64,000 bases of DNA from Eledone cirrhosa (taxonomy: Eukaryota), in contig OZ024745.1 of the NCBI GenBank assembly GCA_964016885.1, positions 88,908,001-88,972,000 of the forward strand, written 5' to 3'. Of this stretch, positions 53,270-56,700 are shown in pieces (position 1 is the stretch's first letter; every line of letters begins with the position of its first letter). Under the pieces are notes generated by a model, which did not search any database, had not been told where the DNA came from, and worked only from the letters and a program-made list of their open reading frames with translations. Position numbers and translations under genes: made by a program.

Positions 53270-53797
53270 ATATATATATATACATATATATATACGTGAT
53301 ATATATATATATATATATATATGTATATATATATATATGTATATATATGTATGTATATATATATGTATGTATATATATATACATATATATATATACATAT
53401 ATATATATACATATATATATACATATATATATATATATATATACATATATATATATACATATATATATATGTGATATATATATATATATATATGTATATA
53501 TATATATATGTATATATATGTATGTATGTATATATATATGTATGTATATATATATACATATATATATATACATATATATATATACATGTATATATATATA
53601 TATATATATATATATATATATATATATATATATATATATATATATATATATATATATATATATATATATATATATATATATATATATATATATATACATA
53701 TATATATATATATATATATATATATATATATATATATATATATATACATATATATATATATATATATATATATATATATATATACATATATATATAT
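53270..53797. repeat. (TA)n microsatellite
   Basis: Direct reading. Confidence 0.95.
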
Positions 53798-56700
53798 GAA
53801 TATAGACATAGAATATTCGAAAATATTCTGTATGTTTATAATAAACATTTTGAAGACCTAATCGCTATAGAATAGAATACGTCACGTATTACAATTAGAT
53901 TCTCGATAAAAGCAAGGGAAGTAATCTACGCGTTTCATTCTTGTTAGAATTCATCAGGACTACATATCCAGTGCTTTTATCGAGAATGACACAGCTAGAG
54001 ACTTATAGAATACTTAGCTGTGTACAGGAACTGGTTTGAAAGAGCGGTTGCCGGTCCGGCAGAAATTAGAAATTGGAATAAATGCTCTGAAATAGCGATA
54101 TATATGTGAATATAGACATAGAATATTCGAAAATATTCTGTATGTTTATAATAAACATTTTGAAGACCTAATCGCTATAGAATAGAATACGTCACGTATT
54201 ACAATTAGATTCTCGATAAAAGCAAGGGAAGTAATCTACGCGTTTCATTCTTGTTAGAATTCATCAGGACTACATATCCAGTGCTTTTATCGAGAATGAC
54301 ACAGCTAGAGACTTATAGAATACTTAGCTGTGTACAGGAACTGGTTTGAAAGAGCGGTTGCCGGTCCGGCAGAAATTAGAAATTGGAATAAATGCTCTGA
54401 AATAGCGATATATATGTGAATATAGACATAGAATATTCGAAAATATTCTGTATGTTTATAATAAACATTTTGAAGACCTAATCGCTATAGAATAGAATAC
54501 GTCACGTATTACAATTAGATTCTCGATAAAAGCAAGGGAAGTAATCTACGCGTTTCATTCTTGTTAGAATTCATCAGGACTACATATCCAGTGCTTTTAT
54601 CGAGAATGACACAGCTAGAGACTTATAGAATACTTAGCTGTGTACAGGAACTGGTTTGAAAGAGCGGTTGCCGGTCCGGCAGAAATTAGAAATTGGAATA
54701 AATGCTCTGAAATAGCGATATATATGTGAATATAGACATAGAATATTCGAAAATATTCTGTATGTTTATAATAAACATTTTGAAGACCTAATCGCTATAG
54801 AATAGAATACGTCACGTATTACAATTAGATTCTCGATAAAAGCAAGGGAAGTAATCTACGCGTTTCATTCTTGTTAGAATTCATCAGGACTACATATCCA
54901 GTGCTTTTATCGAGAATGACACAGCTAGAGACTTATAGAATACTTAGCTGTGTACAGGAACTGGTTTGAAAGAGCGGTTGCCGGTCCGGCAGAAATTAGA
55001 AATTGGAATAAATGCTCTGAAATAGCGATATATATGTGAATATAGACATAGAATATTCGAAAATATTCTGTATGTTTATAATAAACATTTTGAAGACCTA
55101 ATCGCTATAGAATAGAATACGTCACGTATTACAATTAGATTCTCGATAAAAGCAAGGGAAGTAATCTACGCGTTTCATTCTTGTTAGAATTCATCAGGAC
55201 TACATATCCAGTGCTTTTATCGAGAATGACACAGCTAGAGACTTATAGAATACTTAGCTGTGTACAGGAACTGGTTTGAAAGAGCGGTTGCCGGTCCGGC
55301 AGAAATTAGAAATTGGAATAAATGCTCTGAAATAGCGATATATATGTGAATATAGACATAGAATATTCGAAAATATTCTGTATGTTTATAATAAACATTT
55401 TGAAGACCTAATCGCTATAGAATAGAATACGTCACGTATTACAATTAGATTCTCGATAAAAGCAAGGGAAGTAATCTACGCGTTTCATTCTTGTTAGAAT
55501 TCATCAGGACTACATATCCAGTGCTTTTATCGAGAATGACACAGCTAGAGACTTATAGAATACTTAGCTGTGTACAGGAACTGGTTTGAAAGAGCGGTTG
55601 CCGGTCCGGCAGAAATTAGAAATTGGAATAAATGCTCTGAAATAGCGATATATATGTGAATATAGACATAGAATATTCGAAAATATTCTGTATGTTTATA
55701 ATAAACATTTTGAAGACCTAATCGCTATAGAATAGAATACGTCACGTATTACAATTAGATTCTCGATAAAAGCAAGGGAAGTAATCTACGCGTTTCATTC
55801 TTGTTAGAATTCATCAGGACTACATATCCAGTGCTTTTATCGAGAATGACACAGCTAGAGACTTATAGAATACTTAGCTGTGTACAGGAACTGGTTTGAA
55901 AGAGCGGTTGCCGGTCCGGCAGAAATTAGAAATTGGAATAAATGCTCTGAAATAGCGATATATATGTGAATATAGACATAGAATATTCGAAAATATTCTG
56001 TATGTTTATAATAAACATTTTGAAGACCTAATCGCTATAGAATAGAATACGTCACGTATTACAATTAGATTCTCGATAAAAGCAAGGGAAGTAATCTACG
56101 CGTTTCATTCTTGTTAGAATTCATCAGGACTACATATCCAGTGCTTTTATCGAGAATGACACAGCTAGAGACTTATAGAATACTTAGCTGTGTACAGGAA
56201 CTGGTTTGAAAGAGCGGTTGCCGGTCCGGCAGAAATTAGAAATTGGAATAAATGCTCTGAAATAGCGATATATATGTGAATATAGACATAGAATATTCGA
56301 AAATATTCTGTATGTTTATAATAAACATTTTGAAGACCTAATCGCTATAGAATAGAATACGTCACGTATTACAATTAGATTCTCGATAAAAGCAAGGGAA
56401 GTAATCTACGCGTTTCATTCTTGTTAGAATTCATCAGGACTACATATCCAGTGCTTTTATCGAGAATGACACAGCTAGAGACTTATAGAATACTTAGCTG
56501 TGTACAGGAACTGGTTTGAAAGAGCGGTTGCCGGTCCGGCAGAAATTAGAAATTGGAATAAATGCTCTGAAATAGCGATATATATGTGAATATAGACATA
56601 GAATATTCGAAAATATTCTGTATGTTTATAATAAACATTTTGAAGACCTAATCGCTATAGAATAGAATACGTCACGTATTACAATTAGATTCTCGATAAA

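Follow-up and report, generated by a model that had tools for sequence, protein, structure and literature searches.

The tandem array on the minus strand of the window, the whole 64,000-nucleotide stretch of DNA analysed here, very probably belongs to a young insertion of a non-LTR retrozyme, of which it forms one arm; the outer ends of this insertion lie at two fixed sites 35 nt apart, termed J1 and J2. The likely maker of such insertions is a reverse transcriptase/endonuclease of the Penelope type, which would nick TA-rich DNA on both strands and use a single RNA as template to extend the two 3' ends; this RNA is probably a closed circle in most cases. The insertions of this family have two inverted arms with one J1 end and one J2 end, a haplotype shared by both arms, read-through of the ribozyme cut site, microhomology at the inversion and, where readable, target duplications of ~14 bp.

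The array and its hammerhead unit

The window array repeats the 310-bp unit of a type I hammerhead retrozyme about 21 times, and cleavage is predicted from the sequence. The features of this region are as follows.

53798 to 60277, minus strand: J1 arm of the retrozyme insertion, 20.9 near-identical units of 310 bp
53270 to 53797, no strand: imperfect (TA)n tract of 528 bp, the insertion target (TRF period 2, 263 copies)
53788 to 53807, minus strand: J1 junction, where (TA)n meets unit position 1 with GT skipped, RNA 3' side toward (TA)n
53907 to 53972, minus strand: type I hammerhead, first copy, minimal stem III, predicted cut 53926/53927
54072 to 54107, minus strand: "tail" as carried inside each unit, from the J2 site at 54072 (unit position 275) to the AT tract plus GT at 54098-54107
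60278 to 60477, no strand: assembly gap of 200 N, predicted to conceal the inversion point and the J2 arm

The 310-nt spacing is exact across 21 anchors in the array. Among the complete units, 19 of 20 are identical and one carries a single change; the last unit enters the 200-N gap. Each unit contains a minus-strand hammerhead (CUGAUGA-stem II-GAAAC GC GUA^GAUUAC), the core motifs occur 21 times at 310-nt spacing, and stems I and II fold. Rfam gives no match to the window hammerhead at the gathering threshold and a sub-threshold match to Hammerhead_HH9 at 53907-53972 (E 0.0057). The monomer folds far better than its shuffles (z -4.4). The unit is non-coding, with no frame of 150 aa within the array. 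Low-GC, non-coding tandem units of ~300 bp, each with a type I hammerhead, are shared with the metazoan non-LTR retrozymes, and the element is a new family of this group.

At unit position 153 (window 53950), the window unit has the first base pair of stem II in its paired, minority form. A change predicted to unpair this base is present in 72/92 elements, so many copies may cut poorly. None of 37 fixed variants lies in the 12 hammerhead core bases, against 1.3 expected, a difference that is not significant.

On the other side of the gap, the unit is absent from the 9.9 kb of contig examined. Positions 60478-62345 hold a decayed LINE-like reverse transcriptase fragment, recognised by eye, that ends in (GTAAAAGA)3 and is followed by more than 1.6 kb of (TA)n. 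Pfam gave no match for the single frame of this fragment that was tested.

Two inverted arms with two fixed junctions

The J1 junction in the window reads ...TATATATAT|GAATATAGAC at 53797/53798, where array-internal units read GCGATATATATGT|GAATATAGAC, with GATATATATGT|GAATATAGAC at the same boundary. A preliminary description of this DNA had placed the junction at the internal TA tract of the unit, about 130 nt from the predicted cut site; that description is exact, and the distance to 53926/53927 is 129 nt. The window junction omits the GT that follows the tract, and its register with the tract is therefore imperfect.

The unit is present in ~16,000 copies in its own 3.0-Gb genome (16,373 and 14,525 matches to two motifs). 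Arms are mostly ~99% identical to the unit, and the copies are dispersed over many loci without an LTR or coding frame. The J1 pattern has 978 forward matches, double counts included, and 610 reverse matches genome-wide, which correspond to ~1,200 ends, against 0 matches for the reversed control. The expected clustering of junctions at the TA tract in (TA)n is thus borne out. Junctions at the cut site had been named as evidence against this account; a pattern of (TA)n joined at the cut site, which a common haplotype changed at unit position 145 escapes, has 0 matches genome-wide.

J1 is indeed fixed, but the preliminary description, with its single array junction, missed a second fixed junction and the two inverted arms. 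J2 lies 35 nt further 3' on the RNA than J1, is without the AU tract, and has 489 reverse and 980 doubled forward matches genome-wide, or ~980 ends. The mean number of units per insertion is 9.5, from which the genome is estimated to contain roughly 1,700 retrozyme insertions. J1 starts range over unit positions 301-12 and J2 starts over 268-285, with a mode of 275 in 56/83. J1 is at the tract or at most 12 nt from it in 83/83 tallied insertions. The J1 register (n=82) is in full agreement with the AT tract in 27 cases, skips GT as in the window in 48, and is otherwise in 7. AT homology at J2 is only ~2 nt.

A junction-blind sample was made up of the 17 loci under the first 100 matches to an internal motif. 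Each of the 17 ends at J1 or J2 on at least one side; 16 of their targets are perfect or imperfect TA repeats and one is AT-rich DNA. This sample added six loci, of which four are J1+J2 pairs and two are single arms. One locus in plain AT-rich DNA (L148) uses both J1 and J2. Both here and at L144, J1 is used with 3-4 nt of homology and target duplications of ~14 bp are observed, whereas pure (TA)n makes a duplication unreadable.

In the first 170 Mb of chromosome-scale contig C1, 78 J1 and 61 J2 ends form 39 facing pairs, and every pair joins J1 with J2. The sampled sequence consists of these 39 pairs and all 61 unpaired ends from the same 170 Mb. Two-armed insertions with both ends read have one J1 and one J2 end in 87/87 cases, 83/83 from the junction search and 4/4 from the junction-blind sample. 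The 83 exclude L086, a duplicate of L045 on the far side of a gap, the second L077 element, a duplicate of L041, and L110, whose J1 end was unread; L086 is still counted in the tallies of starts and inner ends. Among the 100 segment groups, 13 have a single arm and another runs into a gap; L149 adds one more single arm. The arms are inverted with the RNA 3' sides pointing outward, and the ~35-nt offset of their ends amounts to a tail on one end only. The window array is a J1 arm, and by the two-armed rule of 87/87 insertions its J2 partner is predicted to lie inside the assembly gap.

The longer arm is the J1 arm in 38/82 insertions and the other arm in 44/82. With either one able to exceed its partner, neither arm can be a simple duplicate of the other. 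The correlation between the lengths of the two arms is weak (rho 0.29, p 0.009). The two inner ends are at most 10 nt apart in 6/82 insertions, against 5.6 expected, and inner ends are evenly spread over the unit. This even spread of mutually unrelated inner ends speaks against fold-back copying and classical twin priming. Direct inversion joints have an overlap of at least 2 nt in 28/50 cases, compared with 18% by chance, and small insertions are found at 32/82 inversion joints.

In L078 (positions 1350-1621), 272 nt of foreign sequence lie between the arms and share 96-98% identity with a repeat present 26 times at 19.7-23.9 Mb of contig C25. This insert is likely a template switch. A Penelope end was considered as its source and rejected as far as tested, the match being to the 26-copy repeat clustered on C25. 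At 56.26 Mb of C1, the same two-armed element is found on both flanks of an assembly gap (L086 and L045), a sign that inverted arrays break assemblies. Near-identical arrays can also be smoothed by assembly.

A candidate start signal and Penelope elements

A candidate signal for the start of copying is located beside J1.

53810 to 53848, minus strand: conserved RNA hairpin pair just 5' of J1, putative reverse transcriptase binding signal, with covariation across aligned copies

Across 16 aligned copies, 3/17 base pairs of the hairpins are changed on both sides and 98.5% of cells are paired, although the copies are related and represent few independent events. The hairpin pair is kept between the 310-bp family and an older 321-bp sister family, and so is the AT tract. 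The sister family has 2,149 motif matches and the same two ends, ~36 nt apart; both ends are found in 9/23 loci and one end twice in 0/23. Its hammerhead core reads UUGAUAA, with positions 3 and 8 changed as a pair (U3/A8; L124:5830-6700, L071:1480-2020, L151-L180). The canonical core is retained in a third relative, found in L012. A decayed relative of the double hairpin is located at window positions 26302-26379 (E 4e-6), beside a (TA)/(TG) run. A model search of 27 loci gave nothing convincing outside retrozyme copies.

J2 is as fixed as J1 with ~2 nt of homology, J1 is never used twice in one insertion, and L148 uses both junctions, a pattern that would fit a protein bound to RNA structure. 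It is likely that an enzyme-RNA complex sets the start and that TA pairing only fine-tunes it. The AT tract may be at most a helper, and GT skipping may be slippage after annealing.

Penelope-like elements are present in the same window.

15519 to 20209, minus strand: partially tandem copy of Penelope-like family A, with its long 3' end at 15522 and an open frame at 16798-18990
13988 to 14134, no strand: miniature two-armed family A end copy, long end left and short end right, both in (TA)n
46332 to 53200, no strand: two Penelope family C arms in inverted orientation, with hammerheads, short end at 46332 and long end near 53200

The family A frame at 16798-18990 has a DKT motif like that of the (TA)n-targeting Hydra clade. 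Family C has a hammerhead at 53009-53053 on the plus strand and a GIY-YIG match (E 2.4e-4). Pfam assigned no family to 5/6 frames tested, family A included. All four Penelope ends that had been said to abut (TA)n (15522, 32259, 39205 and 46332) do abut TA-rich runs. Another inverted element, with hammerhead-like cores at 12317, 25859 and 26003 and ends in (TA)n, is found at 12184-12400 and 25660-26140.

Family A has 32,458 motif matches genome-wide. At 30 loci, 30/30 outer ends are in (TA)n; 15 mark a long site and 14 a short site, which lies 79 nt further in, and one is close to the long site. Captured pairs join a long and a short end in 8/8 cases, and homology at the short end is ~3 nt. Family A arms stop within a 13-nt stretch around GUC at 20/30 loci, as would be expected from a cut linear RNA. 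By pattern, this region (window 15610-15670 and L181-L210) is without a canonical hammerhead, and the GUC lies 5' of a GAAA-stem motif; judged from these motifs, the stop looks like a self-cleavage site. Many family A copies are tiny palindromes.

The two-end layout is common to the retrozyme and the Hydra-type Penelope family A. Shared machinery had been proposed from the (TA)n ends; the Penelope-like layout and these ends support it, but there is no sequence match, since 0/16 autonomous Penelope 3' regions, a subset of the Penelope families of the genome, match the unit. The hairpins of family A and the retrozyme match weakly (E 0.0065), partly through a TA run.

Template, mechanism and known systems

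Among 53 insertions with both arms of at least 620 nt, 26 haplotypes are found, and the arms agree in 50/53; agreement in 10,000 shuffles had a mean of 5.7 and a maximum of 14. In L088 and L124 the arms differ at one site. The arms cross the cut site 894 times. Inner ends lie at most 5 nt from the cut in 4/82 and 0/82 cases, with 2.6 expected for each, and 0/13 far ends of single arms are at the cut site. Scars at the cut site were sought over the 894 passes and none was seen; 14 non-fixed calls fall in unit positions 125-134, 7 of them alignment shifts of one fixed insertion. Element-private variants, which are unique in the sample, fill every covered unit of both arms in 17/20 elements, e.g., a 2-nt deletion in 22/22 units. 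Cut-site read-through and private variants in all units favour a closed one-unit template, and closed circles are probably the main template.

Three insertions differ. L059 has, from the outer end, two units of one haplotype and then another, in both arms, while L050 and L106 have a variant common to the outermost unit of both arms. Variants limited to the outermost one or two units exclude a one-unit circle at these loci, where a multi-unit template is needed. Rolling around a circle, as first proposed, is therefore favoured for the family by read-through and private variants, and these three loci point instead to a multimeric template. The pattern also needs both enzymes to read in the same register, which supports the copying of both arms from one molecule. 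Apparent first-unit variants in L041, L054 and L062 were dropped as alignment artefacts.

Self-closing 340-nt contigs of the unit occur in 6/7 contig sets under other organism labels, plus one 280-nt piece, with the same haplotypes. In the raw DNA reads of one such organism, the unit is in 0 of 12.8 million. Cross-contamination is the simplest reading, and contigs cannot separate tandem DNA from a circle, so these contigs count neither toward expression nor toward horizontal transfer. Among public runs with the unit, no RNA run is listed.

Double priming by a Penelope-type enzyme could also have used, in every case, an uncut linear multimer from an existing array, with no circle. This is somewhat unlikely. 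It would explain the two-unit switch of L059 and the shared outermost variants of L050 and L106, and ribozyme cleavage is dispensable in vitro, as far as the accessible text of PMC11167929 goes. Against it, private variants occupy all units of both arms in 17/20 elements, and only 3 in-register shared events are found among 80 testable non-fixed calls, ~60 of which are unshared. Partly cut multimers should pile inner ends at the cut, much as 20/30 family A arms are piled at one site, yet no such pile is seen. Moreover, daughters could not outgrow the parent arm, yet arms of more than 40 units exist (L069/L070). Repeated copying of a cut linear monomer by precise end-to-end template jumps is much less probable. 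Telomerase-like enzymes can make such jumps, and uniform units with private variants would also follow, but the cut site is without scars (14 non-fixed calls at unit positions 125-134 over 894 passes) or an excess of stops.

In the model taken from the preliminary description, nicked (TA)n DNA, as a lone end, pairs with the AU tract, and this places the junction. The distance from J1 to the tract is indeed at most 12 nt in 83/83 insertions, 27/82 are in full register, the 48 GT-skipping ends are readable as slippage, and the tract is kept in the sister family. Pairing alone is nevertheless a poor candidate for what sets the junction: J2, 35 nt away and without the tract, is equally fixed on ~2 nt of homology, no insertion has two J1 ends despite the symmetry of the target, L148 and L144 use J1 on 3-4 nt, and the short end of family A has ~3 nt. 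Shared haplotypes and outermost shared variants would also be accounted for if first-strand cDNA folded back, or was copied as DNA, to form the second arm and was joined to (TA)n by tract microhomology, or if arrays grew and were homogenised after insertion by unequal exchange and conversion. The weak correlation of arm lengths (rho 0.29, p 0.009) is in keeping with fold-back, and palindromic joints are discussed for Penelope in the accessible part of PMC3846280. Such an origin is improbable, however, given that the J1 arm is the longer in 38/82 insertions and that inner ends at most 10 nt apart (6/82) are at the expected 5.6. For homogenisation, the rarity of non-fixed variants (112 singletons in 282 kb, with few intermediates) leaves little time for sweeps.

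The preferred reading remains priming at both target ends by a Penelope-type enzyme on one RNA, mostly circular. The enzyme would nick both strands of TA-rich DNA, and a dimer bound at the conserved hairpins would position the two primers, one for each of J1 and J2. AT homology of 1-9 nt may then decide the exact base, and the GT may sometimes be slipped over. Both cDNAs would then run through several units and join by microhomology, and the window junction would represent the tail-less (J1) start.

A more specific form, in which a single dimeric Penelope enzyme extends two cDNAs simultaneously by rolling around one RNA circle made by the ribozyme, with active sites 35 nt apart and one for each DNA end, has about an even chance of being correct. 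If true, it would provide direct genomic evidence for circle-templated retrotransposition in animals and for what causes the tail and inversion of Penelope insertions; the neighbouring Hydra-type element, with its stop at the cut site, would serve as internal control. The family offers more than 1,000 young insertions with readable haplotypes. In the accessible literature, how animal retrozymes re-enter DNA and why Penelope insertions have inverted arms with a tail at one end are both open. The two questions reduce to tests with one protein, one 310-nt RNA, circular or linear, two predicted starts and a predicted strict pairing of start with DNA end.

LINE-1 twin priming involves two target ends that prime on one RNA, and the resulting inversion is joined by microhomology. 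The retrozyme differs in that both starts are fixed, 35 nt apart and without poly(A), the first arm does not stop at the second start, and inner ends are uniform over the unit.

The metazoan non-LTR retrozymes, as described in the accessible texts, share ~300-bp low-GC tandem units, a type I hammerhead, dispersed loci, duplications of more than 4 bp and co-occurring Penelope elements with the present family. Cervera and de la Pena (2020; PMC7229834) demonstrated circular forms of other animal retrozymes and suggested Penelope as the agent of their mobility. Li, Clavereau and Pollet (2026; bioRxiv 10.64898/2026.07.22.740005) added Penelope co-occurrence and phylogeny and, in the available text, called the mechanism open. 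Circle-templated copying by a Penelope or LINE enzyme is proposed across these two sources. In the latter, 1/9 Xenopus retrozyme dimers cut in vitro, and 24/57 Xenopus families match known elements, whereas the 310-bp family has no sequence link to a Penelope end. Unlike in these accessible texts, insertion ends are mapped here, with two inverted arms, two fixed starts and no stop at the cut site. A search of titles and abstracts, with most subscription papers outside its scope, found no published mapping of retrozyme ends of this kind.

A further likeness is to the EN+ Penelope-like elements, which consist of an inverted 5'-truncated copy and a 30-40-bp tail (accessible parts of PMC8557442 and PMC3846280). 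In the Poseidon PAc system, the Penelope protein cuts AT-rich DNA and extends both strands, starting from a pair of internal positions on the RNA, one on each side of the tail; target homology and ribozyme cleavage are not needed (Frangieh et al. 2024; PMC11167929, as far as available). The retrozyme is alike in having two internal starts that define a one-end tail, extension of both target strands, AT-rich or (TA)n targets, and starts downstream of the hammerhead. An autonomous Penelope-like element has an ORF with reverse transcriptase and GIY-YIG endonuclease, which is absent from the retrozyme unit, so the unit behaves like such an element without being one; the 310-bp retrozyme, without an ORF, instead has arms that are tandem arrays of many units. 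The Penelope protein is a predicted dimer, and the available text of PMC11167929 describes a start site equal for both strands in vitro, so that the strict J1/J2 pairing is thus far without an in vitro counterpart there. In the retrozyme that pairing is strict (87/87) and both arms carry one haplotype, a point that lies outside the in vitro work as available.
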